Source: Elusimicrobiota bacterium
Lineage (GTDB): Bacteria > Elusimicrobiota > Elusimicrobia > UBA1565
NCBI GenBank assembly: GCA_043827405.1
Contig: JBDRPD010000050.1
Location: 32,001 to 96,000 of the forward strand
Length of the DNA: 64,000 bases
Direction: 5' to 3'
Every line of letters starts with the position of its first letter. The first letter of the stretch is position 1. Both the position numbers and the translations under genes were made by a program. Shown in pieces: positions 7,281 to 64,000 of this stretch. The notes under the pieces were generated by a model. That model ran no database searches. It saw only the letters and a program-made list of their open reading frames with translations, and had not been told where the DNA came from.

Positions 7281-7346
7281 GGCCCTTTGACCCAGCCCCG
7301 GCCGGGACCAACGACGCATACGCTCCGCCGGCTATTGCATTACAAT
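7281..7346 (+). promoter_or_regulatory. Tandem-box promoter (box, box, 23 nt, -10 TACAAT)
   Basis: GGCCCTTTGACCC 7281, GGACCAACGACGC 7305, TACAAT 7341-7346, ATG 7355. Confidence 0.55.
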
Positions 7347-7354
7347 TAAGGTAG

Positions 7355-8383
7355 ATGATACGCAGGTACTGGAGCGCCCTATTGGCGGCCGCAGCTGCGG
7401 CCGTATTATCCGCCCCGCTCGACGCCGCGGCCGGAAGCTACGGCGCCGCCGCGGCCGCCGACGAGCCGGTCGTCGTCCATGCCAAAGTCGACTATCTCGA
7501 TTCGGCGGTCGATGACCTGCGGGATGCGGTGCGCAACGACGGCTACTCGGACAACGACGTTCACGCCAAGGCCTCGGTTCTGTTCGGGAGCATCGTGCGC
7601 AAGGACTCCACCGCCATCGGCACCCTGCACGTCCGCGGCTGGGCCAAGCCCAGCATTCACACCACGGCTTTCCGGACCGGGCAGAGCCGCGAGAACATCA
7701 CGGTCGACGGGATGTCCGCGGCGGTATATAAAACCTTGATGGCTTCGGACGTGCCGCCGCCGACCGAGATCATGGACGCTTACGTCTACGGCGAGGACCT
7801 CGAAAAGGACGGCCTGAAGAATTACGACGACGGAAAGATTCTGGGCCGGGGCCAGCTCGGCGTCTATATGTACCGGGGCAGCGAGAAGGTGGGCGTTTAC
7901 TTCAACAAGTTCATGCGCAGCGTCCAGGCCTGGGTCGGCAATGAGTTCGCCGCCGCCACGGACATGCATGAGAGCGCCCATTCGCGCGACCATACCAAGG
8001 GCGAACTCAACCCGGTCGAAGTGCGCCGCGGCGAAGTCCTGGCCTACAAGACCGAATACCTGTGGCTGAACCTCATGGACCCGACCGGACAAAAGCTGTC
8101 GTGGGCACGCGCCACCTTCGGCAAGTTCGCGCAGGGAGCGGACAAGGCGCCGGAATTTGTTAGTGAGTATCTGGAGCACCTAGCGAAGATTCGCTATTAC
8201 GGAAACAAGGACGACTTTTTAGGGCTCGTAGACGAGCTGGGGTACCGGGATAAGCACAACCATGCCGGAGCCCCCCATGGAAGCGATGCGCCCGGCCGCC
8301 GAGATGACGCAGAGAAAGCGGAGCGCCCGGGTGAAGAGGATGGCCCGCCCGCACTCGTACAGTACGTTAATTTCCCGGGCTGA
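7355..8383 (+). CDS. Exported protein with zincin-like HExxH motif
   Basis: Signal peptide; MHESAHSRDH followed by a downstream Glu (GEVLAY). Confidence 0.65.
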   Translation: MIRRYWSALLAAAAAAVLSAPLDAAAGSYGAAAAADEPVVVHAKVDYLDSAVDDLRDAVRNDGYSDNDVHAKASVLFGSIVRKDSTAIGTLHVRGWAKPSIHTTAFRTGQSRENITVDGMSAAVYKTLMASDVPPPTEIMDAYVYGEDLEKDGLKNYDDGKILGRGQLGVYMYRGSEKVGVYFNKFMRSVQAWVGNEFAAATDMHESAHSRDHTKGELNPVEVRRGEVLAYKTEYLWLNLMDPTGQKLSWARATFGKFAQGADKAPEFVSEYLEHLAKIRYYGNKDDFLGLVDELGYRDKHNHAGAPHGSDAPGRRDDAEKAERPGEEDGPPALVQYVNFPG

Positions 8384-8441
8384 CCACCGCCGGCTTCCTC
8401 TCCTAACAACCGTCCCGCAAAATGATATAAGAGGTACTTCT

Positions 8442-9584
8442 ATGGCTATTCTTTCAAGCCGGGACGAGCAGATATCCGTCACCTGCGCGATTCTGAAAGA
8501 CGATGTCCGCAAACGCTTTTTCGCCGCCCTGCGCAAAAAGGGCGGTAATCCGGAGCGTATTGCCCGGGTCTGCGACACCGGCGCCGGGGTCGTCAATAAC
8601 TGGATCACGGGCTCAACCAAGCTCCCCTACAACACGCTGCAAATGCTCGCCGCGGAGTTCAACGTGGCGCTGCCCGAAATCAGCGAGCTGCGCAAGGAGT
8701 ACCAAATAGTCTCCGGCGGCCACAAAAGGAAGCGGGAGCCGAAGCGGCCGGTCATCCCCGGCCCGCTGCCGGCAGAGCCGAGCGCCGGCGGCCCGCCGCA
8801 AAAACCGCCGCAAGAACCGCGGCGCGAACCCGAACGCGAACCGAAACGTGAATCCAAGCGCACCGCCCGGCGCGGCCGCAAAGCGGAGAAGGCGGCCCCG
8901 CGCCAGGATGAGGCCGCCAAATCGCCGGACAAGCTGACCGACGACCGCGCCTACTGGACGGGTGTGCTGCTCGGCCGCGCCGAGCGCGACGAAACCCATA
9001 TCCGCCTGGCCGCCGGCAAGCGCATCAGCCAGAACTTCGCGGCGACCTGGGCCATCCTCACCGTGAAGGCCTTCGACGTCAAGCCCGAGCTTGCGATGTC
9101 GGAAGACCGTTCGGTCCAAACGGCGACTTTGCCCGCGGCCAGCGTCGCGGCCTTTCTCGACCGCATCGAGTTCAAGCCGGGCACCCGGCCGGACAGCGCT
9201 CCCGGGGCTCCCCGCTGGGTTTGGTCCAACCCGGACTGGAAAAAAGAATTCCTCAAGGGGCTGGTGGACTCCTGCGCGCAGTTTCAGCGCACGCCGGCGC
9301 TCACCCTGGAGGGGCTGTCGGAGCAGCTGGCGCAGTCGGCGGTCAAGATGTTCGCGTCTTTGGAGCTGACCGCGAAAATAGGTGACGCGAATAAGGTGAC
9401 GCTCGAAGGCGCCGACGCGGTACGCAAGTACGTCGACGAGGTCGGAACGCGCAACCCCAAACTCAAGGACCAGATCGGCTCCCACTTCGGCACCCGCCCC
9501 CAGGGACAAAACCGCGGCCGCTCCTCCGGGCGGCGGCGCGGCGGACGGCGGCGCTCGCAGCAAAGCCGTAAGACGCAGGGCTAG
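8442..9584 (+). CDS. HTH plus degenerate double LAGLIDADG DNA-binding protein
   Basis: GAGG before ATG 8442; N-terminal XRE-like helices (ERIARVCDTGAGVVNNWITG); AYWTGVLLGRA and EFLKGLVDSCA motifs; Arg/Gly-rich tail. Confidence 0.6.
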   Translation: MAILSSRDEQISVTCAILKDDVRKRFFAALRKKGGNPERIARVCDTGAGVVNNWITGSTKLPYNTLQMLAAEFNVALPEISELRKEYQIVSGGHKRKREPKRPVIPGPLPAEPSAGGPPQKPPQEPRREPEREPKRESKRTARRGRKAEKAAPRQDEAAKSPDKLTDDRAYWTGVLLGRAERDETHIRLAAGKRISQNFAATWAILTVKAFDVKPELAMSEDRSVQTATLPAASVAAFLDRIEFKPGTRPDSAPGAPRWVWSNPDWKKEFLKGLVDSCAQFQRTPALTLEGLSEQLAQSAVKMFASLELTAKIGDANKVTLEGADAVRKYVDEVGTRNPKLKDQIGSHFGTRPQGQNRGRSSGRRRGGRRRSQQSRKTQG

Positions 9585-9601
9585 GCCCGCCCGCCGCCCA
9601 T

Positions 9602-10567
9602 ATGGCCGCGCGCGCGATGCCGAAAAACGACACCGGGACCGACGTTGTGCTCGCTTTGGGATGCGGCTCGGCGCGCGGCCTCGCGCATATCGGCGCGATC
9701 CGGGAGTTGGAGAGGGCCGGCTACAATATCCGCGGGGTCGCCGGCAGCAGCATCGGGGCGGTGATCGGCGCGCTCTACTGCGCCGGGGCGCTCGGAGAGT
9801 ACGAGAAGTATGTACTCTCCCTCAACTGGAAGAGCGTCCTGCGCATGCTCGACCCCGTCTTCCCGACGGCGGGCCTGCTGGGCGGGGACCATCTCAAAAA
9901 GATGATCGCCCAATTCATCGGCGAGCGCGACATCGAAGACCTCGACATCCCGTTCTGCGCGGTCGCCTCCGATCTGGCCACCGGCGAGGAAGTGCGCCTG
10001 CGCAAAGGGCCGGTGGAGCAGATGGTGCGGGCGAGCTTCGCCGTCCCGGGGATATTCACGCCGGTTGAGTGGCAGGGAGAGTATCTCGTGGACGGCGGCG
10101 TAAGCAGCCCCGTCCCCGTCGGCGCCGCGCGGGAGCTGGCCGACGCCGAGCTGCCGGTGATCGCGATCGACGTAAACGCCGGCCCGCGCCGGACCCGCAC
10201 GCCGGGAAAGGTCATCCCGCCGAGCAAGCCTCCGCCCTCCAGCGGCTACTTCGACGCCTTCCTCAAGCCGTTCGGCGCCAAGCAGGAAAGCGGGCCGGGG
10301 CTCTTCTCTTCGCTGAGCGACTGCGTCGCTCATGTCCAGCACCGCCTCACGGTGCTGCAGCTGGAGCGTGACATTCCGGACTACCTCATCGAAACCGACC
10401 TCGGCAGCGTCGGGATGTTCGACTATCACCGCGCCGAAGGACTTATCCGCGCGGGACGGCGGGCCGCCAAGCGGGCGCTCAGGACCGGACGCCGGCGCCG
10501 CGGACGGCTTAAGCCGATGATCCGGCGCTGGCTCCCGGCCTGGGCGCTCGACGCGATCACCGAATGA
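9602..10567 (+). CDS. Patatin-like phospholipase
   Basis: LALGCGSARGLAHIG, GSSIG nucleophile elbow, LVDGG. Confidence 0.92.
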   Translation: MAARAMPKNDTGTDVVLALGCGSARGLAHIGAIRELERAGYNIRGVAGSSIGAVIGALYCAGALGEYEKYVLSLNWKSVLRMLDPVFPTAGLLGGDHLKKMIAQFIGERDIEDLDIPFCAVASDLATGEEVRLRKGPVEQMVRASFAVPGIFTPVEWQGEYLVDGGVSSPVPVGAARELADAELPVIAIDVNAGPRRTRTPGKVIPPSKPPPSSGYFDAFLKPFGAKQESGPGLFSSLSDCVAHVQHRLTVLQLERDIPDYLIETDLGSVGMFDYHRAEGLIRAGRRAAKRALRTGRRRRGRLKPMIRRWLPAWALDAITE

Positions 10568-10568
10568 G

Positions 10569-11078
10569 ATGAGCCGGGCATTCGTTAAAGAAGACTCCGG
10601 CGAAGAGGACGATCTTCCCGATCGTCCGCAGCCACCGGGCCCCAATTACGTCACTCCCCGGGGAAACAGGCTTCTGCGGGAGCGGCTGGAAGCGCTGGCC
10701 GCCGAGCGCTCCCGGTTCCCGGCCGGAGCGGACGACGGCGAACTGCGCCGTCGGCGGCGCATGGTCGAGCGGGAGATCCGCTACTACCGGGGGCGGGCGG
10801 AAACCGCGGTGGTCGTGGACCATGCGGACAACCCGCCGGAGGATGTCCGCATCGGCGCGGAGATTGAGGCCGCGGATGAGAGCGGACATAAGCGCCGCTT
10901 CTTTATCGTAGGTCACGATGAGGCGGATCCGGAGAACGGCCGGATCAGCTGGGCCTCCCCCTTGGCGGGCTTGCTGCTTGGCCGCAAAGCCGGGGATGAA
11001 GCCGTCTGGAAGAAGCCCGGCGGCGAAACGCGTCTGCGCATCACAGCCGTCCGCTATACCGGGGACGGGGGAGCGTAG
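10569..11078 (+). CDS. GreA/GreB family elongation factor
   Basis: MSRAFVKED, NYVTPRG, IVGHDEAD, ISWASPLA. Confidence 0.9.
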   Translation: MSRAFVKEDSGEEDDLPDRPQPPGPNYVTPRGNRLLRERLEALAAERSRFPAGADDGELRRRRRMVEREIRYYRGRAETAVVVDHADNPPEDVRIGAEIEAADESGHKRRFFIVGHDEADPENGRISWASPLAGLLLGRKAGDEAVWKKPGGETRLRITAVRYTGDGGA

Positions 11079-11143
11079 TGCGAATCGCCCCGCGTTTTTT
11101 GTAGATTCTGCGTAAATTATCCCAAACCGCCTTCGGAGGAAGC

Positions 11144-12043: not shown

Positions 12044-12078
12044 CCGGCGGACATCGGCGTCGGCTTCGCCGCTTAACC

Positions 12079-12115
12079 CGGAAGCCCTGCTGCGCTATTG
12101 GCGGCAGGGCTTCCG
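12079..12115. terminator. Hairpin between convergent genes
   Basis: CGGAAGCCCTGCTGC / GCGGCAGGGCTTCCG inverted repeat; no strong U tract. Confidence 0.55.
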
Positions 12116-13763: not shown

Positions 13764-13861
13764 AGGGGAAAATCCTCTATCTGGAGGTGAGGGATATAAG
13801 GCCGGAATGGCTCGGATTATAACAATATCCGCCGCCATGACTCCCATCCTCCGAAATAGCT

Positions 13862-14641: not shown

Positions 14642-14680
14642 CTTTCCCGTTCTGACGGATTTCGCGCCGCTCCCTGAAGC

Positions 14681-15422: not shown

Positions 15423-15443
15423 CCCTTTCGGTCCCGAGTCCCC

Positions 15444-23367: not shown

Positions 23368-24279
23368 TCAATGCGCGCCGGTTTGGGCTCTGCGCAGTCC
23401 GCTCGACACCAGCAGGCAGGAGCCCGCGAGCGCCGCGAAGCCGCCCGCCAGCTTGAGCGCGCCGGGAAGCTCGCTCCCGAGCGCGGCCGCCGCCGCCAGC
23501 ACCAGGACCGGGTGCTGCGCCGTGATCAGCGCGACCTTGCTGACTTCGATCGCCTGGATCGCCTTGAAGCGGACCGTGATGTGGAAAAACGGACCGACGA
23601 TGCCGCCGGCGATGAGGATGCCGAGATGCTCCCACGGCGGCAAAGACGGCCCCCGGCCGCGGGCGAGGAAGATCGCGCACGGGACCAGCAGCAGCGCCCA
23701 GTTGCGCAAGTTCGCCAGAGCCATCGGCTCCTCGCTCTCCAGGAGACGCTTGACCACCACCTGGTTTAAGCCCCAGACCCCGTTGGAAATAAGCAGCAGC
23801 GTGAGGCCGGCGATCCCCGCTCCCTCGGAGGTATAGGCGATCATGCCCAGGCCCAGGACGATGAGCGCCGCTCCGGCCGCTTCGCCGACGGCGAAGCGCT
23901 CGCGCAGGATCAGGATCCCGAACAGCAGGACATAGAAGACGTGCGACTGGGAGATAAAGGAAGCCATGGAGGACGATACGTGCCGCAGGCCGAAGAAGAA
24001 CAGCACCGCCGCCGTCACCTCGAAGAGCACGAAGACCGCGACCCAGCCGGCCTTGCGGCGTGAGAAGCTCCAAGGAGCGGCCCGCGGCCGCAGTATGCTT
24101 AGAGGGATAAAGCCTATCTGCGCGGCCAGATACCAGTAGAAGAAGAACTCGGGCAGGGCCACGCGCGCGACTCCCTCTTTGCCAAGGATGAAGATTCCGG
24201 CGCCGCAAACCAGAACAATCAGCGAATAACCGATCCCGCGCAGACTCCGCGTCCAAGCATTATCCGCTGCCGGCTCCAT
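23368..24279 (-). CDS. EamA/DMT transporter
   Basis: About 10 TM in two repeats; LFGILILRER; start reassigned to ATG 24279. Confidence 0.8.
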   Translation of the reverse strand: MEPAADNAWTRSLRGIGYSLIVLVCGAGIFILGKEGVARVALPEFFFYWYLAAQIGFIPLSILRPRAAPWSFSRRKAGWVAVFVLFEVTAAVLFFFGLRHVSSSMASFISQSHVFYVLLFGILILRERFAVGEAAGAALIVLGLGMIAYTSEGAGIAGLTLLLISNGVWGLNQVVVKRLLESEEPMALANLRNWALLLVPCAIFLARGRGPSLPPWEHLGILIAGGIVGPFFHITVRFKAIQAIEVSKVALITAQHPVLVLAAAAALGSELPGALKLAGGFAALAGSCLLVSSGLRRAQTGAH

Positions 24280-24407
24280 GGCGACAGCATAGCTAATAGA
24301 AGGCCATTTATCCTTAATTTTTATACGAATACTTCTAGGCCTCAAGTCCCTTATACGACCTCCCCTTCGGCCCAGGCGCAAACCCGCGAACCGCCCATAC
24401 TATGAAT

Positions 24408-25013
24408 ATGAAGCTGTCGCATGCCCTGATTCCGTTCGTTGCCGCCCTGCTGCTCTCGGCAGGCTTCGCCGCGGCGGAAGCGCCGCCCGTCCGGGGAGGA
24501 GCGGTGCCGCGGCACCTGAAGCTTCCGCTTCTTAAGGTCGTTCCCGCACCCACTTTTTACGCCGACTTCTGCGACCGGTACCCCGGCGACTGCGACTTAT
24601 CGGGCCCGGGGACGATCACGCTCACGCCCGAAATTTGGCGCCAGCTCGATTCCGTGAACCGGGAGGTCAACGGCGCATTCAAGCTTATACCGGACGCCGA
24701 GCATACCGGCGGCCAGTTCGAGGAGTTCTGGGACTACCTCGACCCGGGCTACGGCGACTGCGAGGATTTCGCTCTTGAGAAGCGCCGCCGCCTGGTCAAG
24801 CTCGGCCTGCCGCGCGGAGCGCTGCGCATGACCACGGCCTTCCATAAGGAATTGCTTTATCCTCACGCCATACTCCTCGTAGAAACCAGCCAAGGGACGC
24901 TGGTGCTCGACCAGGAATCGCAATCCATCGACTACTGGGACGAGAAGCCGCTGATGTACGAGAAGCGCGAGCGCCAAGACGGCCGCTGGGAAGTGTTCGA
25001 GGTGGATTGGTAA
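24408..25013 (+). CDS. Transglutaminase-like cysteine peptidase (C93/BTLCP, LapG-like)
   Basis: Signal peptide; VNREVN, GDCEDFALEKRRRL, HAILLV, VLDQ triad. Alternative start 24402. Confidence 0.9.
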   Translation: MKLSHALIPFVAALLLSAGFAAAEAPPVRGGAVPRHLKLPLLKVVPAPTFYADFCDRYPGDCDLSGPGTITLTPEIWRQLDSVNREVNGAFKLIPDAEHTGGQFEEFWDYLDPGYGDCEDFALEKRRRLVKLGLPRGALRMTTAFHKELLYPHAILLVETSQGTLVLDQESQSIDYWDEKPLMYEKRERQDGRWEVFEVDW

Positions 25014-25084: not shown

Positions 25085-27166
25085 ATGCGCGAGAAAACCC
25101 TCCATCTATTCGTCCTATCCGCTCTGGCCTGCGCCCAGCCGCTTTATGACCTGCTGGCGCGTCACGCCGACTTCTTCGTGGCGCGGCGGGCGGGCACGAC
25201 GGACATCCTGATCCTGATTTTCCTGTTGAGCTGCATGCTGCCGGCGGTGTTGGCGCTGATCGCGCTCCTCGCTTCCCGGCTCGACCGCCGCCTGGGAGAG
25301 TGGACGCATAGCGCCGCCGTCGCGGCGCTGGCCGGGCTGCTGGCGCTGCAGATCGGCAAACATCTGGGCGCTTCTTCCTCGCTGCTGCTGTTTCCCGCGG
25401 CGGCGTTGGCCGGCGCCGGCGCCGCCCGGCTCCTGCACAATAACGGAAGAGCCCGCACCTATTTAAGTTTTCTGTCGCCCGCCGTCCTGATTATTCCCGC
25501 GGCGTTCCTGCTCGCTTCCCAGATACGCCCCCTGGTCTTTGGCGGCGGCGGTGCAGCGGCGCCGCTCTCCTCCGGCGGAAAAAAATACCCGAATATTGTC
25601 TTCGTCATCTACGACGCCCTGCCGACGATCACCCTCATGAACGAGCAGCGCCTGATCGACGCCGAGCGCTTCCCCAATTTCGCGCGGCTCGCGAATGATT
25701 CGGTGTGGTTTCGCAACGCCACCACCATCGCGCCCGTAACCTTCCTCTCCGTCCCGGTGGCCGTCTCCGGCATCGTCCACCCGTTCGGCGAGAAGGTCCC
25801 GATCGCCACGCACCATGCGTACCCAAGAAACCTGTTCACCTTCCTCGCCGATTCACACGCCATGAATGCTTGGGAGACCTACAGCATCCTGTGCCCGGAG
25901 AAGCTGTGCGGCGACCCCAGGAACCGGCCGCCGTTCGTCCGCCGCCTGCGCGCCATGCTGACCGATCTATCGATCGTCTACTTACACCTCGTCCTGCCCG
26001 GCGACCTAACGGCCCGCCTGCCGGCCGTCACGCGTACCTGGAAAAACTTCAGCCGCCCGGACGACGACGCACCGGCACAGCGCCCGTCGGACGAGGAACA
26101 GCTGAAGATGGTGCAGGAAAATGAGGCCGGCTGGAAGTACGAAGACCGGCCCCGGGACTTTCTTGCCTTCGTCGACTCCATCCGGCCCGGCCCGCGCCCG
26201 ACGCTGAACTTCCTGCACCACATGCTGCCGCATCCGCCGTGGAACTACCTCGCCTCGGGGAAGTACTACACGGTCCCCGGCGAACAGGTGGTCGAAGGCG
26301 TCCCGACCGACACCGACCGCTGGCCGCAAGACGAGTTTATTGTCCGCCGGGGGTTTCAGCGCCACCTCATGCAGACGATTTATACCGACAAACTGCTGGG
26401 CCGGCTCCTGGACCGCCTGGAGAAAACCGGACTCTATGACGACACCCTGATAGTGGTAACCGCGGACCATGGCGTCAGCTTCCGCGCCGGCGACCTGCGC
26501 CGCGAATGGACGTCCTCCAATGTCGGCGATATCATGGCGGTACCGCTGTTTTTCAAGCTGCCCGGACGGCGCGCCGGCCGCATCAGCGACCGCAACGTGG
26601 AGAATATCGACATCATCGCCACCATCGCCGACGCCATCGGCAAGCCGCTGCCGTGGCCGCGAGGACCGTCAGCGCTTGATGAGAAGAAGCCGGCGCGGCC
26701 GGAGAAGCTTATTCTGATCAAGGGTGCGGCCGTCCGCCGCTACCCGCCGCATTTTCCCGAGATGAACCAGGCGCTCGATCAGCAGGTCCGGCGGTTCGGC
26801 ACCAGCGCGAACCCGGAAGCGCTTTTCCGGGTTGGCCCGCACGGCGGCCTGGTGGGGCGGGCAGTAAGCAAACAGCTGCTCGCGGAGCCCGCACGCGTCG
26901 GCCTCGAGATCGATCAGCGCGACCGGGCCTTTCTGACCGGCCGCATTGTCTTCGGCTCGGAGCGCCCCCGGCTTGTGCACCTCGCTTTCGCTCTCAACGG
27001 CGTAATCCGCGCCGTCACGCGTACCCGGCAGCCCGCAAACGGTGCGGCCGCGCTTTCCGTCCTGCTGCCGGAAGAGCGCTTCCTCCCGGACGGCAATGAG
27101 CTGCAAGTATTCGTTATTTCAGGCGACGCCGGCCGGGAGAAGCTGCGGCCGCTGCGACAGCGCTAG
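25085..27166 (+). CDS. Membrane-anchored sulfatase/alkaline-phosphatase superfamily protein
   Basis: N-terminal TMs; PNIVFVIYD, PNFARLA, LPHPPW, IVVTADHG, VPLFFK. Confidence 0.85.
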   Translation: MREKTLHLFVLSALACAQPLYDLLARHADFFVARRAGTTDILILIFLLSCMLPAVLALIALLASRLDRRLGEWTHSAAVAALAGLLALQIGKHLGASSSLLLFPAAALAGAGAARLLHNNGRARTYLSFLSPAVLIIPAAFLLASQIRPLVFGGGGAAAPLSSGGKKYPNIVFVIYDALPTITLMNEQRLIDAERFPNFARLANDSVWFRNATTIAPVTFLSVPVAVSGIVHPFGEKVPIATHHAYPRNLFTFLADSHAMNAWETYSILCPEKLCGDPRNRPPFVRRLRAMLTDLSIVYLHLVLPGDLTARLPAVTRTWKNFSRPDDDAPAQRPSDEEQLKMVQENEAGWKYEDRPRDFLAFVDSIRPGPRPTLNFLHHMLPHPPWNYLASGKYYTVPGEQVVEGVPTDTDRWPQDEFIVRRGFQRHLMQTIYTDKLLGRLLDRLEKTGLYDDTLIVVTADHGVSFRAGDLRREWTSSNVGDIMAVPLFFKLPGRRAGRISDRNVENIDIIATIADAIGKPLPWPRGPSALDEKKPARPEKLILIKGAAVRRYPPHFPEMNQALDQQVRRFGTSANPEALFRVGPHGGLVGRAVSKQLLAEPARVGLEIDQRDRAFLTGRIVFGSERPRLVHLAFALNGVIRAVTRTRQPANGAAALSVLLPEERFLPDGNELQVFVISGDAGREKLRPLRQR

Positions 27167-29076
27167 ACTTCTTTATCGGGGAAGAAGGCCCTGAAGGGCC
27201 GCAGGAAGTTGATCTTGCCGCGCAGGCGATGCCAGGAAAGCAGGAAGAACAGCGCCGCCACGCTCAGCAGTCCCGCCAGGACGGTGAAGCCGGTCATGGC
27301 GCCCAGCGCGTCGAAGGCCCAGCCCATGCCCAGCAGGCCCAGCATGGAGACCGCCGTCGCCAGGGAGTAAATGAATCCCGTCACCGAACCCGCCTCGTCT
27401 TTTTTCGCCACCGCCTGGAAGTAGGCGGTCAGCCCCAGCTCGCTGCTCATATTGCCGGTCGAGAGCAGAAAAGCTACCGGCGCCGCCACGTAGATCGTCG
27501 GGAAGGCTATCAGCGCCCACGCCGTCAGGCTCATAATCGCGGCGTACTTCAGCCAGCCGAAGGAGGCGCCGGATTTTTTCGCATTCTTCCTAAGATAGAG
27601 CGCGGCCGCCAATTCGCCGGCGTTCCAGGCCATCAGCATCACGGCGGCCAATGCCGGGTTGCCCAGGATCTGGGTGGCGTAGACCACGGCCAAAAGCGCA
27701 TGAAACAGCTTATGCAGCATGATGATGGGGATATTGACCATGGTCCCCAAACGCAGAGTCGGGTTGTTCCAGACAATGCGCGCGCCGCGGAATATATCCC
27801 CGATGGCGGGCTTCTCTTCTTTCTTCTCCGGCGCGGCCCGCACGGACCCCCCGGCCGACCGCCGGATATTCAGGGCGAGCCGGATGAGAAAGTAAACAAC
27901 CAGGGCGTAGGAAGCGGGGTGCAGAACCAGCGTCCCGAGAGCTCCCAGCTTATTGAGCAGCAGCCCGGCCGCGCCCACGGCGGCGACGGATAGTATCTCG
28001 CGGAAGATATAGAGCTGGCCGTTATGCTCGCGCAAAACCCCCTCATGGCGGCCGAGGATCAGCGGCATGGCGGCCCGGCGCGCGGTGTCAAAGACGCCGC
28101 CGAATATGCCGTTGATGGTAAAGAGGGCGAACAGCACCGGCACGCCGACGGGGACGCCCAGCGCCAGGGCCAGCGGAATCACCCCGATCGCCATCATCTG
28201 CATGACCGCGGAGCTCGCCAGCACGCGCGACGGGCCGTAGCGGTCGATCGAGGGACCCGCGATCCAGCCGGCAACCATGCCCCCGATCTCCGCCGAGATA
28301 AACAGGGCGCCGACCAAAGTCGCCGCGCCGAACTGGGTCAGCAGCAGCACCGGCACCACCAGGTTCATCGTCTCCACGCCGACCTTGGTTATCGATACCG
28401 CCGCCGCGTAGTAGCGGAAATTCTTCTTCTGTACCGGGGTAAGCTCCGGCGCCGGGACGTCGGCGGCGATTTCGCTCAGCTCGAAACTCTGCGCTGCGCC
28501 GTGATCACAGCAGGAGCTGAAATGCTTAAGGCCGAATACGGAACGCAGGCTTCGTCCCAGCCCCGCCAGCCGCTGCCGGCCGACCGGTACGGGCGCGGCG
28601 ACGGACAGGCCGCGCGCGCTCCGGCCGGTAAGGATATGCTCCAGGCTCCGTCCGGCCGCATAGACGCCGCCGGCCGAGGTCTCCTGCGCCCGGACCTCGG
28701 CGAGGAGCGGCGCCGCTTCCTTGGAAAGCTTCTGCGCCCGCGCCTGAACGGTCTTGGCGGCCGCCGGCTGATTAGGGCGGACCTCCTCCGCCGGGGCGAC
28801 CTGAGGGGAAATCTTGACCGAAGCGCCGGCGACGGCATTCGCAGCGGAAAGGGAATTTACGGTCGGCAGCGCGGAGCCCAGGGAAAGCGTCGCTCCGGTC
28901 TTGAACAGACCGTTGTTAAGCGCCAACGGGGCCGACGGGACCGCAACGCCGGGGACGCCCGCGGCGGTGCCCGCGATCTTGACCTTGACCGCGACAGCGG
29001 CGGCGGCATCGCGCACCGGCATTCCCGCAAGCAGGAGCGCCAAGCACGCGGCCAGCAAACGCCTAGCCGTTCTCAT
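27163..29076 (-). CDS. MFS transporter with signal peptide and ~210-aa low-complexity leader
   Basis: MFS core (AGPSIDRYGPSRVL, about 12 TM) preceded by a signal peptide and an Ala/Val/Pro-rich region; start ATG 29076. Confidence 0.85.
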   Translation of the reverse strand: MRTARRLLAACLALLLAGMPVRDAAAAVAVKVKIAGTAAGVPGVAVPSAPLALNNGLFKTGATLSLGSALPTVNSLSAANAVAGASVKISPQVAPAEEVRPNQPAAAKTVQARAQKLSKEAAPLLAEVRAQETSAGGVYAAGRSLEHILTGRSARGLSVAAPVPVGRQRLAGLGRSLRSVFGLKHFSSCCDHGAAQSFELSEIAADVPAPELTPVQKKNFRYYAAAVSITKVGVETMNLVVPVLLLTQFGAATLVGALFISAEIGGMVAGWIAGPSIDRYGPSRVLASSAVMQMMAIGVIPLALALGVPVGVPVLFALFTINGIFGGVFDTARRAAMPLILGRHEGVLREHNGQLYIFREILSVAAVGAAGLLLNKLGALGTLVLHPASYALVVYFLIRLALNIRRSAGGSVRAAPEKKEEKPAIGDIFRGARIVWNNPTLRLGTMVNIPIIMLHKLFHALLAVVYATQILGNPALAAVMLMAWNAGELAAALYLRKNAKKSGASFGWLKYAAIMSLTAWALIAFPTIYVAAPVAFLLSTGNMSSELGLTAYFQAVAKKDEAGSVTGFIYSLATAVSMLGLLGMGWAFDALGAMTGFTVLAGLLSVAALFFLLSWHRLRGKINFLRPFRAFFPDKEV

Positions 29077-29082: not shown

Positions 29083-29147
29083 AGTATAGGCGTGAAGCTC
29101 CGGGAGGTAATGATGCGTAAGGCCCAAACAGGCCTCATCTTTCGACC
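29083..29147 (-). promoter_or_regulatory. Tandem-box promoter (box, box, 23 nt, -10 TATACT)
   Basis: Minus strand GGTCGAAAGATGA (29147), GGCCTTACGCATC (29124), TATACT 29088-29083, ATG 29076. Confidence 0.5.
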
Positions 29148-38812: not shown

Positions 38813-38834
38813 AGCGACCTCCTAAAGAGGCCTA

Positions 38835-38899
38835 GGCCCATTATCCCGCAATAAACAGGGCTTTTGCCTCATTCGCATTTTCCGGCTTTAAGTTAACAT
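38835..38899 (+). promoter_or_regulatory. Tandem-box promoter (box, box, 23 nt, -10 TAACAT)
   Basis: GGCCCATTATCCC 38835, GGGCTTTTGCCTC 38858, TAACAT 38894-38899, ATG 38909. Confidence 0.55.
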
Positions 38900-38908: not shown

Positions 38909-41014
38909 ATGAAACAGCTGCTTACTGCGGTCCTATCTCTTTCCTTGACCGGAACAAGCTTCGCGGCCATCCCTATTAAGGTAGCCCCCGCCGTACCTGT
39001 CGGCGGCATGGGCAGCGCCGCGGCCGGCGTCGCGGTACGCGGTCCGGGAGCCGCGCTTGAACTCAATTTCGATCTCACCCCCGGCCAGATCAAAGCGACC
39101 TTCCGTTCCGCTTCCCAAAACCTTGACGCCGCGCTCAACGCGATCGGCGCCGTAAAGCCCGCAGAGGCGACCTTCTACAACACCGTTCATGCCCTGGAAA
39201 AAGCCTGGGTGGACTACCAGGATGAGATGGCGGGCATCCGGGTGCTCTCCGCTTCGCCGCGCAAGCGCGTACGTGAAGCGGTGGATCAGGTCAACGACAT
39301 GGCCAGCGACATGGGCACCGCGCAGGGCATGCGCGAAGACATCTACCAAGCGGTTCTCGCCTACGCCGAGAAAGGAGAGCAGCTGACGGGCGAGGATATG
39401 AAGCTGGTCGAAGACACCTTGCTTGATTTCCGCAAATCCGGCATGGGCTTAAAGCCCGCCGACCGGGCGAAGCTGCAGCGGGTCTCCTCCAAAATTTCCA
39501 AGCTGGTCCGGCAGTACGAGATCAATATCCGCGAATGGGAAGGCGGCATCGACGTCCTGCCGGAAGAGCTCGCCGGCGTGCCGACCGCGATTATCGGCAG
39601 CCTCAAAAAGGTGCCCGGCGGGAAGCTCCGCGTCCCCGACGACGGAGAGGCCGGCGGCCAGGTCATGAGCAAAGCCAAGAGCTCCAAGGTCCGCATGCGG
39701 CTCTACTATGCCATGCAGCGCAAAGCCGCGAAAAAGAACCTCCCTATTCTGCGCAAAGTGCTCAAGCTCCGCAAGCAGCAAGCCAATATGCTCGGCTATA
39801 AGAACTTCGCCGAGATGAAGATAGACGGCCGCATGGCCAAGACCCCCCAGCGGGTCTGGCAGTTCCTGGGCCGCCTGCGCAAGATGCTGCGCCCGGCGGC
39901 GGAAGCCGAAGACGCCGAGATACTCGAACAGAAGCGCTCGGAGAAGCCCGGCGCCGAAAAAGTCCAGCCTTGGGACGGCGCGCGCTACGGGCGCCAGCAC
40001 ATGGAAAAGACTCTCGACCTCAACCCGGACAAAATTCGCGAGTACTTCCCGGCCGAGCGGGCCATCCCCGAAGCGCTCAAGATTTACGAAGAGCTGCTCG
40101 GCATACGCTTTGAGGAGATCAAGGACGTCAAGGTATGGCATAAGGACGTCAAAGCGTACGACGTCATGGACGCCGGCGGCGCACGCATGGGCCGCCTCTA
40201 CCTGGACCTCTACGCCCGCAAAGGCAAGCGGGGCGGAGCCTGGGCCGCGCCGCTGGTCGGCGGCCGCGCCCTGGAAGACGGCACCTATCGCGAGCCGGTC
40301 ACCGCCGTCACCGCCGACTTCGAAAAAGGGGAAAACGGCAAGCCGACGCTGCTGCGCCACGGCAACGTAAAGACCCTGTTTCATGAGCTCGGCCATGCCA
40401 TGCACATGACGCTGACCACCGCCCAGCGCCGCTCCTTCTCCGGTTCCGGAGTCGCCTGGGACTTCGTCGAGGCGCCCTCGCAGATGATGGAGAACTTTAT
40501 TTGGCAGAAGCAGGTGCTGGCCAGAGTCTCCGGCCACTACAAGGACCCCTCCCAGCCGCTGCCGCCGGAGATCGTTGAAAAACTATTAGCCTCGCGCAAC
40601 TACCATTCCGCATCCGGCGCGCTCGGCCAAGCGGCGATGGCCGCCATGGACCTCGCCTACTACACGGCCGCTCCCAAAGACGTGCTGGGCGTGTTTCGCA
40701 AGATGATGAAGACTTTCACCGGCGTTGAGCCCAACAAGGCGTCGAAGTTTCCGGCCCGCTTCGGCCATATTCTCACCGGCTATGCGGCCGGCTACTATGG
40801 CTACTTGTGGTCGCGGGTCTCCGCGCAGGATATCTTCTCGATCTTTGAGGCCGCCGGCGTCATGAGCCCGGAGGTCGGACGCCGCTACCGCAACACCATC
40901 CTGGCGCGCGGCTCGAGCATCGATGAGGAAGAGAACCTGAGCGATTTCCTCGGCCGCAAGCCCAGCGAAGAAGCCTTCCTGAAGTGGCTCGGCGTCGCGC
41001 CGGTCGGCGACTGA
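38909..41014 (+). CDS. M3A thimet-oligopeptidase-like metallopeptidase with signal peptide
   Basis: LYLDLYARKGK, TLFHELGHAMH, DFVEAPSQMMEN, FGHI, YAAGYYGYLWS. Confidence 0.95.
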   Translation: MKQLLTAVLSLSLTGTSFAAIPIKVAPAVPVGGMGSAAAGVAVRGPGAALELNFDLTPGQIKATFRSASQNLDAALNAIGAVKPAEATFYNTVHALEKAWVDYQDEMAGIRVLSASPRKRVREAVDQVNDMASDMGTAQGMREDIYQAVLAYAEKGEQLTGEDMKLVEDTLLDFRKSGMGLKPADRAKLQRVSSKISKLVRQYEINIREWEGGIDVLPEELAGVPTAIIGSLKKVPGGKLRVPDDGEAGGQVMSKAKSSKVRMRLYYAMQRKAAKKNLPILRKVLKLRKQQANMLGYKNFAEMKIDGRMAKTPQRVWQFLGRLRKMLRPAAEAEDAEILEQKRSEKPGAEKVQPWDGARYGRQHMEKTLDLNPDKIREYFPAERAIPEALKIYEELLGIRFEEIKDVKVWHKDVKAYDVMDAGGARMGRLYLDLYARKGKRGGAWAAPLVGGRALEDGTYREPVTAVTADFEKGENGKPTLLRHGNVKTLFHELGHAMHMTLTTAQRRSFSGSGVAWDFVEAPSQMMENFIWQKQVLARVSGHYKDPSQPLPPEIVEKLLASRNYHSASGALGQAAMAAMDLAYYTAAPKDVLGVFRKMMKTFTGVEPNKASKFPARFGHILTGYAAGYYGYLWSRVSAQDIFSIFEAAGVMSPEVGRRYRNTILARGSSIDEEENLSDFLGRKPSEEAFLKWLGVAPVGD

Positions 41015-54159: not shown

Positions 54160-54233
54160 TGGAGCGGGCGAAGGGAATCGAACCCTCGTCTTTACCTTGG
54201 CAAGGTAGCGTTCTACCATTGAACCACGCCCGC
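54160..54233 (-). tRNA. tRNA-Gly(GCC)
   Basis: GCGGGCG/CGCCCGC acceptor, TACC-TTGCCAA-GGTA, GGTTCGATTCC, TCCA end; upstream TTGGCG-N17-TAAAAT. Confidence 0.97.
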
Positions 54234-56530: not shown

Positions 56531-56534
56531 GCTA

Positions 56535-59820: not shown

Positions 59821-62102
59821 TGCTTGGGCGGTTCCAGCGGCTTCAGGGGGACGGTCTTGGAAGGATCCATCTGATTGGGGTGCGGGTCCGGAGGAGCAAA
59901 AGGATCCTGCTCCGGAAAAGGCTCCGCTGCGGCATCCGGCGGCGGCACCGGCGTCCGCGGCTGCTGCGGCATGGGCGTATGCGGCTGCGGCGGTACCGGC
60001 GTCCGCGGCGGCTGCGGTACCGGCGTCCGCGGCGCCTGTCCCGGAATCGGCGTTTGCACCTGCCGCGGCATTGGGGTGTGCGGGCCGGTCATGGACGGAT
60101 AGCCCGGAGCGGCGCTCGGCTTGGGCGCAGCTTGCGCCGCGGCCGGCGGTGCGGCGTCCATCTGCGACGGGTCCGGAATGGGAATGGTGAAATAAAAGAC
60201 CGAGCCCTTGCCGAGCTCCGAATCCACGCCCATCCCGCCGCCATGGGCCTTCACGATCTCTTGGGAAATTTTTAGGCCGAGACCGAAACCTGCTTTGCGC
60301 ATCCGCTGCGCGTTCTCCGCCTGGAAAAATCGTTCGAACACGCGGGGCAAATCCTCTTTGGAGATGCCGATGCCGGTATCCCGCACGCTGATCGTTACCG
60401 CATTGGCGCCGACCTGAACCTTGACGTACACCGCGCCTTTCTCGGAAGTATACTGGATCGCATTGGTCGACAGGTTCTGAATAACCTGGCCGACCCGCAG
60501 GGGATCGCCCTTGAGCAGCGGAATTTTATCGGGCAAGCTCACATGGAGCTGAATCTCCCGCTTCTCGGCCGCGACCTCGATACGGGACTTCACCTCGTTA
60601 ACGACCTGAGAAAGATCCATATCGCTGATATTGACGCGCAGCTTGCCCGACTCGATCGCGGCGTAGTCGACCAGATCGGAGATAAGCCCCTCGAGCGTCC
60701 GCGTCGAGGACTGGATATGCGTGACGCATTTAACCAGAGTCGCGTCCTTAACCTTCCACGACAGCATCTCGGCATAGCCGCGGATCGCGGTCAGCGGGTT
60801 CTTCACATCATGCGCCACGGTGGCAAAAAACTTCTTCTGGAAATCGGTAAGCTGTTCGAGCTCCTCGTTGGCGAATTTAAGCTCCTCGGTAATGCGGGAG
60901 TTCTCCAGCAGCAGCCGGCGGCGCTCCAGCGCGCGCGATATGGAGAAGCGCAGCCGTGAGGGCTCAACCGGCTTAAGCAGACAGTCGTCGAGCCCCACCT
61001 CCACCACCTGCGTAACGCCCTTAAGCGCCGTCTGCAGCGGGTACTGATCGACCATCAGGATGATGCGCAGGTCGGGATCGATCTCGCGCATCTTCTGCGC
61101 CAGCTCGATTCCGGTATGCTGGGCGTAGACGAGGGCGGCGCCGACGACCGCGAGGTGATAGGAATCCTGAGCGATCAGCCGCATCGCCTGCTCGGCGTCC
61201 ATGCAGGCGCCCACTTCGTAGCCTTCCTGGATCAGCCCCGTCGTCAGCTGGATCAAAGAGGGCTTATAGTTGTCTACCAGCAGCACCCGGCCCAGGCCCA
61301 TCGGATCCGAGGTCTGCTTGCCCAATAGGATATCGACGGAATGCTCGACGAGATCGCGGGACAGGAACGCCGGACGCGTACGGCGCAGCGCCCGCTCCGC
61401 GTTGTGCGCGGCGCTGGCGCTGGATACGATGAAGGTGCGGGCGTTGGGAATCTCCTGGCGAACGCGGGCCTCCATCGGGGCGGCGTCAAATACGTCGCCG
61501 GAGAACTGCGCGATAACCGTGGATGGAAACTTCGGTTCCACCGGCGCATTTTCGTCCTTCTTCTTGCTGAGCTTCGACCACAGCGAAGCGTCCCCGGCCG
61601 CCGGCGCACCGCGGGGCAGGGACTGCCGCAGCAGCGAGCCGACGCCGACCGCCGAGTCGACAACGGCGGATTCAATTCCCACCGACCGCAGACGGGCCTG
61701 CAGCATGCCCGTAAGAAAGAGCGTCGGATCGGCGAAAAATACCAGCGGCACGTCCTGCAGCTCCTTGAGAGCCTCCATGAACGAGGCGGGAAGGGGCCAG
61801 CGCAGGCGCGTCACATACTCGGTCGGTGCCCGCGGGTCGGGCGTACCCGGGATGTCAAGCAGGATCAGCGGCGGGCAGCCCGGCTGGCAGTGATCCTGCA
61901 GGACCTCGATCTTTTCCTGCTGATTCATCATTATCAGATCGCCGACCACGCCGATCAGATTGGAGTCTTCTTCTATCCAGCGCGCCTTTGAACTCTTGGC
62001 GTTTTTCTGGACGTCGACCTCGATCTTGCGCCGCTGGCAGGACTTCTTAAACAAGTCGATGATCGCCGGATCTCCGGTAATGAGGATGACCCGGTTTTTC
62101 AT
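59817..62102 (-). CDS. Cytoplasmic hybrid histidine kinase with degenerate receiver domains and Pro-rich tail
   Basis: AHDVKNPL H box, NLSTNAIQY, DTGIGI, GFGLGL; receiver-like domains; no TM. Confidence 0.92.
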   Translation of the reverse strand: MKNRVILITGDPAIIDLFKKSCQRRKIEVDVQKNAKSSKARWIEEDSNLIGVVGDLIMMNQQEKIEVLQDHCQPGCPPLILLDIPGTPDPRAPTEYVTRLRWPLPASFMEALKELQDVPLVFFADPTLFLTGMLQARLRSVGIESAVVDSAVGVGSLLRQSLPRGAPAAGDASLWSKLSKKKDENAPVEPKFPSTVIAQFSGDVFDAAPMEARVRQEIPNARTFIVSSASAAHNAERALRRTRPAFLSRDLVEHSVDILLGKQTSDPMGLGRVLLVDNYKPSLIQLTTGLIQEGYEVGACMDAEQAMRLIAQDSYHLAVVGAALVYAQHTGIELAQKMREIDPDLRIILMVDQYPLQTALKGVTQVVEVGLDDCLLKPVEPSRLRFSISRALERRRLLLENSRITEELKFANEELEQLTDFQKKFFATVAHDVKNPLTAIRGYAEMLSWKVKDATLVKCVTHIQSSTRTLEGLISDLVDYAAIESGKLRVNISDMDLSQVVNEVKSRIEVAAEKREIQLHVSLPDKIPLLKGDPLRVGQVIQNLSTNAIQYTSEKGAVYVKVQVGANAVTISVRDTGIGISKEDLPRVFERFFQAENAQRMRKAGFGLGLKISQEIVKAHGGGMGVDSELGKGSVFYFTIPIPDPSQMDAAPPAAAQAAPKPSAAPGYPSMTGPHTPMPRQVQTPIPGQAPRTPVPQPPRTPVPPQPHTPMPQQPRTPVPPPDAAAEPFPEQDPFAPPDPHPNQMDPSKTVPLKPLEPPKQ
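59938..60087 (-). repeat. About six 24-27-bp intragenic repeats encoding xxTPxP
   Basis: PHTPMPRQ VQTPIPGQA PRTPVPQP PRTPVPPQ PHTPMPQQ PRTPVPPP. Confidence 0.85.
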
Positions 62103-63484
62103 AACGCCAACGGCTCCAGCCGCGCGGTAAAGTGGCTCAAATACTCCGCGGCCTCCAGCAGCTTCATGCCGCGCACCGCCGAAGCATCCTGGGCCACGGC
62201 GGTGAATACCTCGATTACGAAATCGATATGGCTCTGGGTATAGACCCGGCGCGGCACCGCCAGGCGCACGAGCTCCATCTTGGCCGGCTCGAAGCCGCCG
62301 TTGATGCGGCGGCCGAACATAAGCGAGCCGATCTCCACCGTGCGGATGCCGCCGCGGCGGTACAGCTCGCAGGCCAGCGCCTGCGCCGGATATTCCTGCG
62401 GCGGGATATGCGGCAGCAGCCGCTTGGCGTCCACATACACGCCGTGCCCCCCGGGCGGCTCGAGAATCGGCACGCCGCCGCGGCGCAGACCGTCGGCCAA
62501 ATACTCGGTGGAGCGGAGGCGGTACTGCAGGTACTCCTCATCCAGGACCTCCTCGAGTCCGATGGTTATCGCCTCGAGATCGCGGCCCGCGAGTCCGCCG
62601 TAGGTGGCGAAGCCCTCGCCGACAATCAGCACTTCGCGCGCGCGACGCGCCAATTCGACGTTGTTGAGCGCGAGGAACCCCCCCATATTCACCAGGGCGT
62701 CCTTCTTGGCGCTCATCATGCAGCCCTGGGCATAGGAAAACATCTCGTGGGCGATCTCCTTAACGGGCCGCGTAGAGTAGCCCGGCTCGCGCTGCTTAAT
62801 GAAACAGGCGTTCTCGGCGAAGCGTGCGCAGTCCAAAAACATCGGGATCTTATGCTGCGCGCATATCTCGCTGACCTCGCGCAGATTACGCATCGATACC
62901 GGCTGCCCGCCCAGTGAATTATTGGTCACGGTCATGATCACGAGCGGGATATTCTCGGCGCCCCGGTCCTTGATCGCCCCCGCGAGCGCCAGCGTATCCA
63001 TATCGCCCTTGAAGTCGCCGACGCAAGCGAAGTCCAGGGCCGCCGGCACCGGCAGGTCGACCGCCTCGGCGCCCGAGACCTCGACGTTGGCGCGCGTGGT
63101 GTCGAAGTGGGAGTTGGAAATCACCGTCTTGCCCTTGCCGCCGATGATTTCAAACAGAATGCGCTCCGCGGCGCGGCCCTGATGGACCGGAATCACCTCG
63201 CGGTAGCCGGTCAGCTCACGCACTTTCTTTTCAAAGCGAAAGAAGCTCCGGGCGCCGGCATAGGATTCATCGCCCCGCATGAGGCCGCCCCACTGATCGG
63301 CGGACATCGCCGAGGTCCCCGAATCCGTCAGCAGATCGATCAAAACCTTATCGGCGGGGACATTGAAGAGGTTGTAGCCCGCCTTCTTGAGCGCCTCGTC
63401 ACGTTCACCGGCCGAGGTGAAGCCCAGCGGCTCCACACATTTGATCTTAAACGGCTCGATTATAGTCTTCCAGTTCCAATCCAT
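62099..63484 (-). CDS. tnaA: Tryptophanase (tryptophan indole-lyase)
   Basis: IDLLTDSGT, MSAKKD (PLP Lys), HFDTT and HFTARL favour tryptophanase over tyrosine phenol-lyase. Confidence 0.88.
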   Translation of the reverse strand: MDWNWKTIIEPFKIKCVEPLGFTSAGERDEALKKAGYNLFNVPADKVLIDLLTDSGTSAMSADQWGGLMRGDESYAGARSFFRFEKKVRELTGYREVIPVHQGRAAERILFEIIGGKGKTVISNSHFDTTRANVEVSGAEAVDLPVPAALDFACVGDFKGDMDTLALAGAIKDRGAENIPLVIMTVTNNSLGGQPVSMRNLREVSEICAQHKIPMFLDCARFAENACFIKQREPGYSTRPVKEIAHEMFSYAQGCMMSAKKDALVNMGGFLALNNVELARRAREVLIVGEGFATYGGLAGRDLEAITIGLEEVLDEEYLQYRLRSTEYLADGLRRGGVPILEPPGGHGVYVDAKRLLPHIPPQEYPAQALACELYRRGGIRTVEIGSLMFGRRINGGFEPAKMELVRLAVPRRVYTQSHIDFVIEVFTAVAQDASAVRGMKLLEAAEYLSHFTARLEPLAL

Positions 63485-63606
63485 TGGTACCTAAAAGGAG
63501 GTGCGAGCGCCTACCATAAAGATTAGCCGGCCTTCGATACTGTGTCAACAGCAGGACGGTTAACCGTTTTTCCCGATTAGTACTTAGATTTATAACAAAT
63601 CCGTTA

Positions 63607-63694
63607 GGTTTAAGGGCCTAGTTTTTTTGGGCCGGTTGCCTTACCCCGCTTGGGCCCTATGCTCCTGGGGCGCCGGCGGATCTCAAGGTATCAT
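63607..63694 (+). promoter_or_regulatory. Tandem-box promoter (three boxes, 23 nt, -10 TATCAT)
   Basis: GGTTTAAGGGCCT 63607, GGCCGGTTGCCTT 63630, GGCCCTATGCTCC 63653, TATCAT 63689-63694, ATG 63702. Confidence 0.55.
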
Positions 63695-63701
63695 TATGCA
63701 G

Positions 63702-64000
63702 ATGAGCTATTCGCTCCGGACACCCTTACAACGGGCGACCTCACTTATCTGCGTCCTCTTGCTTGCGGCGGCGCCTCTGCAGGCCGCCGTAGCGGTTCGC
63801 CCTTCGATCGGCCTGAACGCCGGCGCCTCCGGCGGGAAGGTTTCGGTGCCCGTCAGCAATATCAAGGCTGTCGCCCCCGGGACAAACGGCTCGCTCGCAC
63901 CGCTGCAGACCTCCATGAACGGCACCTTGCCCAGCCTGGACCTGCCGGCAAGCGGGGTCAGCGGCGCGGCCGAAGCTTCCGTACAGAGCACGCCCCGCGA
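63702..64000 (+). CDS. 5' part of an exported protein with low-complexity leader (runs off the window)
   Basis: Open frame MSYSLRTPLQRATSLICVLLLAAAPLQAAVAVRPSIGLNAGASGG...; not in the ORF track because it has no stop. Confidence 0.75.
   Translation, partial: MSYSLRTPLQRATSLICVLLLAAAPLQAAVAVRPSIGLNAGASGGKVSVPVSNIKAVAPGTNGSLAPLQTSMNGTLPSLDLPASGVSGAAEASVQSTPR

Follow-up and report, generated by a model that had tools for sequence, protein, structure and literature searches.

Promoter boxes in the window

The window analysed here is the whole of a 64,000-nucleotide stretch, positions 32001-96000 of contig C50 (G000 C50:32001-96000) in a groundwater Elusimicrobiota genome of 4.33 Mb and 63% GC, designated G000. 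It contains four promoters, and probably a weaker fifth, in which tandem palindromic boxes stand at a fixed distance upstream of a -10 hexamer and a gene for a predicted exported protein. A sequence-only reading of the window had described the boxes, hexamers and distances, and all of these were found in the sequence. The boxes had been given as degenerate 13-bp elements starting at 7281/7305, 63607/63630/63653 and 24338, and before 29076(-) and 38909. These elements are real, but they are only positions 3-15 of a 16-bp palindrome. They are arranged in tandem, but each box is also a palindrome in itself and not merely a direct repeat. The pitch, given as 23 bp (24 in one case), has its mode at 23 and ranges from 22 to 24. 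The features are as follows (nt, nucleotides; aa, amino acids).

7279..7294, + strand: distal 16-bp box, TAGGCCCTTTGACCCA; pitch 24
7303..7318, + strand: proximal 16-bp box; 28.5 bits; 22 nt from its end to the -10
7341..7346, + strand: -10 hexamer TACAAT; 8 nt to ATG
7355..8383, + strand: 342-aa protein with predicted signal peptide, without the shared leader described below and without Pfam match
24336..24351, + strand: distal box of the weaker fifth site
24359..24374, + strand: proximal box of the fifth site, with a good right and a poor left half-site; 21.4 bits at spacer 23, 9.6 bits at the fixed spacing
24396..24403, + strand: overlapping -10 candidates CATACT (24396-24401) and TACTAT (24398-24403)
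24402..25013, + strand: BTLCP/LapG-like cysteine peptidase (Peptidase_C93) with predicted signal peptide; probable start ATG 24408
27163..29076, - strand: 637-aa protein with predicted signal peptide and shared Ala/Val/Gly leader; MFS transporter
29083..29088, - strand: -10 hexamer TATACT; 6 nt to ATG, leaderless geometry
29111..29126, - strand: proximal box; 31.1 bits
29134..29149, - strand: distal box; pitch 23
38833..38848, + strand: distal box; pitch 23
38856..38871, + strand: proximal box; 33.0 bits
38894..38899, + strand: -10 hexamer TAACAT; 9 nt to ATG
38909..41014, + strand: 701-aa M3 oligopeptidase with predicted signal peptide and short shared leader; HExGH intact, no Cys past the signal; promoter kept in relatives
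63605..63620, + strand: third box
63628..63643, + strand: distal box; pitch 23
63651..63666, + strand: proximal box; 33.5 bits
63689..63694, + strand: -10 hexamer TATCAT; 7 nt to ATG
63702..64000, + strand: 5' part of the gene for a 992-aa protein, continuing to G000 C50:98680; predicted signal peptide, shared leader, four PLD-like domains

Gene models were produced with our own caller (3582 genes in G000); some starts are misplaced, and gene counts are approximate. Signal peptides were called by our own hydrophobicity rule, not by SignalP, and on this basis the proteins downstream of the four main sites and the LapG-like peptidase carry signal peptides, in line with the earlier reading. The four main sites scored 28.5-33.5 bits in the fixed-geometry scan. 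The gap of 6-9 nt that had been claimed between -10 and ATG holds at these sites (8, 6, 9 and 7 nt) but not throughout the genome, where just 53 of 110 targets start 6-9 nt after the -10; about half are thus leaderless or nearly so, and many have a 5' leader.

The case before the LapG-like peptidase, which had been proposed as a weaker fifth one, is likely a weaker member, with 9.6 bits at the fixed spacing and 21.4 bits when the spacer is 1 nt longer. Its boxes (window 24286-24374) are possibly common to the divergent gene 23368-24279(-), with a -10 at 24286-24291. Two further sites are doubtful and were left out of the members: 24291(-), which reached 18.4 bits but shares the LapG boxes and has a poor proximal box, and 34792 (15.4 bits), which lacks a signal peptide. 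The sole Rfam match in the window is a tRNA gene at 54163-54233 (-). The boxes were rejected as an RNA element; they lie upstream of the inferred start, and no Rfam match besides the tRNA was obtained.

Motif and promoter geometry

The consensus is a 16-bp palindrome, TRRGNC-NWWN-GNCYCA. The proximal copy spans -38 to -23 relative to the first T of the -10 hexamer, leaving 22 nt between box end and hexamer; a second copy lies 22-24 bp further upstream (mode 23), and a third is faint. In 18-bp numbering the conserved bases are G3, G4, G5 and C7 with the mirror positions G12, C14 and C16. In G000 the commonest distance from a TANNNT hexamer to ATG is 6 nt, seen at 169 of 2746 called ATG starts. 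Leaderless promoters are therefore common in this genome, and a -10 with a short gap is not special by itself. The 6-nt mode puts the hexamer at -12 to -7 and hence the box centres at about -42.5 and -65.5 relative to inferred starts. The -35 region of the member promoters lacks the TTG seen in other G000 promoters. The proximal box shares one base, the first, with the -35 position, and no box covers the -10 or the start. An alternative sigma factor was rejected as reader of the boxes, since the 22-nt spacer exceeds what a -35 element would allow; 13 sigma-70 region 4 matches were found in G000.

Unsupervised expectation-maximisation, run on 650 TANNNT-ATG promoters, separated out 50 as a class with 13.3 bits of upstream information versus at most 4.2 in three rolled controls. 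The fixed spacing extends over the whole genome. Above 20 bits, the fixed-geometry scan returned 56 sites (25 not in the training class) versus 0 in shuffled DNA, and above 16 bits 86 versus 2. With a symmetric matrix and free spacing, a peak was obtained at spacer 22 and pitch 23 (55 sites versus 0-6 off register). Above 18 bits, 133 free-spacing sites were found in G000 versus 12 in shuffled DNA; as the 63 best fixed-geometry sites served to train this flexible matrix, its counts are partly circular, and signal-peptide status never entered motif training. The boxes are real and, as the survey below documents, class-wide and spread far beyond the window.

Target genes

Behind the sites above 18 bits in G000, 95 of 110 genes encode a predicted signal peptide. 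The enrichment holds for sites outside the expectation-maximisation class (67 of 78, versus 536 of 1740 low-scoring promoters; Fisher p 9e-23). Of the 85 fixed-geometry targets that lie wholly or partly beyond the window, 60 (35 + 25) were scanned against Pfam, as were the window proteins. The scan assigned proteases (M3, M28, M48, M50, S8, S41, Rce1 and Lon), two ClpB-like ATPases, enzymes (glycogen synthase, two amylase-family enzymes, PPK2, a lytic transglycosylase, PLD and EEP nucleases) and membrane proteins (MFS, ABC, MscS). Many targets are without a Pfam family.

Several targets have unusual features. A leader-bearing fusion (L060:156-3422) combines a PQ-loop transporter with uridine kinase and cytidine deaminase domains. 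A leader-bearing protein of 5435 aa (L050:8033-19900; G000 C22:34432-50739) follows a 19-bit site, and its first 3955 aa are without Pfam match. Among the non-secreted members is a conserved single-domain receiver protein (G000 C3:36807-37205 and L132:2077-2490), a possible phosphate sink. Two paralogous proteins of 72-75 aa under boxes in G000 (L052:4558-4776, L069:266-493) have neither signal peptide nor Pfam match. A protein with two PC4-like domains (L062:255-728) lies behind a 17.8-bit site and is common to genome G102. RKHG-containing proteins of 55-67 aa have strong boxes and no signal peptide (L124:1787-1975, L161:2086-2286, G000 C35:31423-31590); in L124 and L161 they are located upstream of a homologue of the DUF6588-like barrel gene described with the regulator.

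Conservation in Elusimicrobia

Relatives retain the promoter: among 29 M3-peptidase loci representing three families of the order, 21 have a site of at least 15 bits at the same spacing when scored with the G000 matrix. The distribution was surveyed in 200 genomes of the phylum, with families labelled f1, f2 and so on. A strict two-box pattern was found in f1 (3/3), f2 (7/7), f3 (1/1), f4 (56/59) and f5 (9/11), and elsewhere three single matches were found. It missed f8, three f4 and two f5 genomes. A one-box pattern recovered f8 (17 matches versus 1 in the control, and 28 versus 3) and two of the three missed f4 genomes (G116, G126); G216 had 12 matches. The box is enriched in six families of the class Elusimicrobia. 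The isolate Elusimicrobium simillimum had 60 one-box matches versus 1 in the control, and nearly all genes behind the first 30 loci, read by eye, have signal-peptide-like N-termini. Targets in the gut relatives differ from those in G000; they are diverse secreted, mostly unnamed proteins.

In a scan of one genome per species, 80 loci were among the matches listed: 64 under titles with Elusimicrobia, Elusimicrobiales, Elusimicrobiaceae or Elusimicrobium, 6 under plain 'bacterium', and 10 under other groups, Actinomycetota in six cases. Loci L108 and L121, titled Eggerthellaceae and Duodenibacillus, show typical Elusimicrobiaceae promoters and genes and are probably mis-binned contigs.

In f8 (G185, G151), the most distant regulator-bearing family, a number of sites are shared between divergent promoters and A predominates at box position 6, a picture nearer to that of DevR than the G000 boxes show. 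In Elusimicrobiaceae a conserved protein of 52-57 aa without signal peptide lies just downstream of an array of at least three boxes (L110, L121, L129, L139, L165). Behind its gene lie a CCTCCT stretch, which is anti-Shine-Dalgarno-like, and a terminator; the gene may represent a feedback regulator or a 3' untranslated-region RNA. Box promoters followed by a short stretch without open reading frame and a terminator occur in L113 and in L115 downstream of 2067; these are candidate small RNAs of the regulon, that in L113 with CCTCCTCC.

Candidate regulator

Candidates were sought by comparing all proteins of G102 (1.2 Mb, f4) with those of G000, which gave 667 reciprocal best hits; those that were soluble and no longer than 520 aa, 513 in all, were read by eye. 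One stood out, a NarL-family response regulator (G000 C83:142377-143042) with 69% identity between the two genomes. It consists of a receiver domain (PF00072) and a GerE-type helix-turn-helix domain (PF00196), and the receiver Asp, Lys and acidic pair are intact when aligned with DevR and NarL. Its PDB matches are VraR, DevR and NarL, with VraR/LiaR types best (E 1.5e-36). The recognition helix KTIKN is invariant in the orthologues and aligns with KTVKN of DevR, residues that contact DNA in that protein.

An orthologue of at least 60% identity is present in 83 of the 200 genomes (one split over two contigs), namely in every genome of f1-f5 and f8. One-box matches reach a median of 21 in this group versus 2 in the control, with at least 7 in 75 of the 83; the 117 genomes without orthologue have at most 6, the control level. 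E. simillimum has a single close copy (70% identity; G250 C3:1672321-1672977). We infer from the family, helix, distribution and gene position of this protein that it binds the box.

The gene is the last in a Tad locus that includes families for Flp pilin, TadE, RcpC, secretin, a fused TadZ-TadA ATPase (758 aa), TadB/C, a TPR protein, a dCache-HAMP kinase and a receiver-kinase hybrid. By hand count it lies 10-17 kb downstream of the TadZ-TadA ATPase gene, on the same contig and strand, in 70 of the 83 genomes; regulator and ATPase are on different contigs in 12 of the remaining 13 and unlinked in one. Two strong regulon genes directly follow the regulator in G000. The first gene past the regulator (L043:385-1611; G000 C83:143384-144610) has the strongest site of the locus (36 bits) and encodes a DUF6588-like predicted outer-membrane barrel; this barrel gene is conserved in other regulon genomes (L179).

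Proposed mechanism and alternative explanations

The boxes are probably tandem operators of a phosphorylated, DevR-like regulator of the NarL family, encoded in the locus with the Tad pilus and two kinases, which would activate about 100-120 housekeeping-sigma promoters with a poor -35, most of them serving genes whose products are predicted to be exported. Phosphorylation of the regulator may come from the dCache-HAMP kinase and the receiver-kinase hybrid, and the inducing signal may relate to surface or cell contact via the Tad pilus. By analogy with DevR, dimers would bind two or three boxes cooperatively, and the proximal dimer would abut the poor -35 and contact or recruit the housekeeping RNA polymerase. 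The sequence-only reading had proposed one dimeric activator just upstream of a poor -35 that co-regulates dispersed exported-protein genes; fixed spacing, signal-peptide enrichment and conservation in relatives support it, and the activator, then nameless, now has a candidate in the predicted Tad-linked protein.

Several observations weigh against this assignment. The Tad operon and the regulator gene in G000 have no strong box (best 13.2 bits); a weak site of 15.2 bits lies before a tadG-like gene on C28. Eight of the 83 orthologue-bearing genomes have fewer than 7 box matches. The match in distribution amounts to about one evolutionary event, as kin are not independent, and any gene special to the clade would show the same profile. 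The closest solved helix-turn-helix domains (7x1k, VraR/LiaR types) outrank DevR, and the helix does not alone specify the box, because 7x1k also has KTVKNH. Homologues of 48-53% identity with a near-identical helix, one of them Tad-linked (G124), are present in genomes without box enrichment (0 versus 3). Two paralogues in G000 (on C51, 65%, and C35, 52%) could share or own sites. Tad ATPases are found in 46 of 63 genomes of f12, a family without regulator and boxes. The neighbouring kinases are of the HisKA type and not the HisKA_3 type usual for NarL partners; the only HisKA_3 kinase in G000 is encoded on C101 beside another regulator. The candidate screen was confined to soluble proteins within the limit of 520 aa. 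The pitch of 22-24 bp (mode 23) differs from that of 21 bp at the DevR-dependent tgs1 promoter as given in the available text of PMC3177182.

That the boxes are real but owned by another protein, either a paralogue (C51 or C35) or an unrecognised class-specific DNA-binding protein, is unlikely. The paralogues have nearly the same helix, screening was by eye and restricted to the 513 proteins mentioned, and that set also held a 69-aa winged-helix-like protein (28%), a MerR-like protein and a probable ECF sigma factor. The f4 genomes, however, are box-rich yet hold one close copy alone, which is Tad-linked, and the remaining candidates are poorly conserved and show no match to the motif. The second NarL regulator of G102 (L244) was rejected as activator because it has no orthologue in G000 (27-32%). 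An XRE-family regulator, suggested by the lambda OR-like or PlcR-like spacing, was not favoured: none of the 19 HTH_3 matches in G000 stood out among proteins shared with G102.

It is likewise improbable that the regulator binds the boxes as a constitutive factor, a repressor or an envelope-stress switch of the LiaR/VraR kind; the set would then be a general module of the envelope or secretome rather than a contact-induced programme. The best PDB relatives are of the VraR/LiaR types, many targets are proteases (M3, M48, M50, S8, S41, Lon, Clp), targets in gut relatives are diverse secreted proteins without a shared leader, and the -35 position begins with a base of the proximal box. Yet the boxes leave the -10 and the start free, the members lack TTG in the -35 region, and the targets, among them glycogen and nucleoside enzymes, differ from classic envelope-repair genes.

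The boxes as chance GC-rich matches or methyltransferase sites (GGNCC) with no regulatory role can hardly be upheld: half-sites are often GGNCC and single boxes are degenerate, but chance origin is already refuted by the sharp register to the -10 and the count of 56 versus 0 in shuffles, and boxes are conserved in gut genomes of 36-49% GC, with frequent GGNCT half-sites. Least credible is binding by the CRP-family activator encoded on C24 of G000, a single-copy CRP/FNR protein with an R-E-x-x-x-R helix that is conserved in the order and whose site has the span of the palindrome; it occurs in the box-free families f10, f15 and f22, and a search at E 1e-25 failed to find it in G021 and in 44 of 45 f4 genomes, which are box-rich, so that its distribution largely rules it out.

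Shared leader and loss of cysteine

Thirty-six targets, chosen by composition, share a leader past the signal peptide that consists of an Ala/Val/Gly stretch and an x-x-LP-x motif. The motif is present in 25 of the 36 versus 113 of 3234 background proteins. In two-fold cross-validation of a leader profile, 30 of 36 held-out proteins ranked within the top 50 of 3564. The overlap of leader and box is partial: a fixed-geometry site of at least 13 bits precedes 7 of 29 further leader-profile matches, several of which are false, versus 11 of 448 random genes. The profile gave no convincing match when run on G102.

Beyond residue 110, the 36 leader proteins contain 14 Cys in 27,286 residues (0.05%). 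The comparison values in G000 are 1.0% for proteins without signal and 0.6% for those with signal; the box targets of E. simillimum have 0.57%. The leader-bearing glycogen synthase has one Cys, inside an active-site motif, versus 10 in its untagged copy. Walker motifs, KTGGL, HExGH and the PPK2 P-loop appear intact in the leader enzymes, and untagged housekeeping paralogues of glycogen synthase, PPK2, Clp, M3 and M50 are present in G000. Predicted export signal, loss of Cys, intact active sites and accompanying untagged housekeeping copies are effector-like traits that occur here jointly.

Enzymes that depend on ATP, ADP-glucose or polyphosphate, have export signals and have shed their cysteines are hard to place in the periplasm. 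Their sequences hint at work in another cell. It is a tentative possibility that the free-living members of this elusimicrobial order live as contact-dependent parasites or predators, in which the Tad pilus would sense the target cell, the DevR-like regulator would switch on about 100 exported proteins, and the leader would route the cysteine-free subset into the cytoplasm and membrane of the other cell for harvest. This subset comprises glycogen synthase, amylases, PPK2, Clp/Lon ATPases, the uridine kinase-transporter fusion, MFS/ABC transporters, nucleases and proteases. Counted against delivery into another cell are the absence of the leader in cultured-type relatives, as far as G102 shows, and the axenic growth of cultured Elusimicrobium isolates. 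The leader could alternatively be an uncleaved anchor. The sequence-only reading had suggested a life-stage or host-contact programme; we infer the same, with the Tad linkage and the cysteine-free, cytoplasmic-type cargo in its support.

The literature searched, to which subscription journals and supplements do not belong, contains no description of the motif, the regulator or the leader, nor of any regulon in free-living Elusimicrobia; the available parts of bioRxiv 10.1101/2023.11.21.568195 and PMC11257099 do not describe the three elements either. How free-living Elusimicrobia make a living is the question on which the regulon bears. The finding provides a candidate master regulator with its predicted site and target list; conservation reaches from groundwater genomes to gut isolates in culture, and a single purified protein and a single culture (E. 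simillimum) would suffice to test the link. The box offers a sequence-only way to list the predicted inducible secretome of each genome. If the leader-bearing cysteine-free enzymes do act in another cell, the regulon would offer the first direct access to a parasitic or predatory way of life in the phylum, together with a protein-routing signal not described before.

Comparison with known systems

The closest parallel is DevR/DosR. Dev boxes of Mycobacterium tuberculosis, as described in the accessible part of PMC3177182, are 18-bp palindromes with conserved G3, G4, G5 and C7 that always occur two to four in tandem, centred at -42.5 and -63.5 in tgs1. The Elusimicrobia boxes conserve the same bases at the same positions in each half and are likewise in tandem, one strong and one degenerate, with the proximal one at -42.5 from an inferred start. 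Both systems have a NarL-family regulator with a K-T-x-K-N helix. At position 6, where the DevR box has A, the G000 box mostly has C or T.

The system works like a DevR switch, yet it is not a DosR regulon, because sensor type and targets differ. The kinases adjacent to the regulator are dCache-HAMP-HisKA and REC-HisKA proteins, and no GAF sensor kinase of the DosS/DosT type is encoded beside it. The targets are predicted exported enzymes and transporters and not hypoxia genes; for hypoxia or dormancy, a single universal stress protein domain was found in G000, with no box upstream. The regulator is, unlike DosR, embedded in a Tad locus, and it belongs to a different phylum. Among the matches listed for the strict pattern, one is actinobacterial (L126) and precedes a putative gene for a universal stress protein. 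VraR/LiaR and 7x1k are the top PDB matches of the regulator (whole protein and helix-turn-helix domain alone, respectively), but VraR/LiaR have KTVKTH where the Elusimicrobia protein has KTIKNH.

In its layout, the locus resembles PprA-PprB of Pseudomonas aeruginosa; this likeness concerns gene arrangement. PprB, according to the available text of PMC3510237, is a NarL/LuxR regulator of Flp/Tad pili that directly activates flp, cupE and bap. In both cases a NarL/LuxR regulator and a kinase are tied to a Tad locus, with genes for surface or secreted proteins as known or predicted targets. PprB activates pilus genes within a limited regulon, whereas the Tad operon in G000 is without a strong box and about 100 dispersed targets are predicted.

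Tad systems of predatory bacteria provide a further comparison. The fused ParA-like TadZ-TadA ATPase is shared with Bdellovibrio TadZA (bioRxiv 10.64898/2026.07.08.737194, as far as its available text goes), and Myxococcus Kil (PMC8460266, likewise) is a Tad apparatus; both occur, as here, in bacteria rich in secreted hydrolases. The accessible portions of these two texts describe neither an embedded regulator nor the motif, and that of the Bdellovibrio paper does not mention Elusimicrobia. Unlike these predators, the Elusimicrobia have at most a putative prey or host. Set beside the mycobacterial system, they appear to reuse the DevR box and its tandem layout for a secretion programme far from the Actinobacteria.

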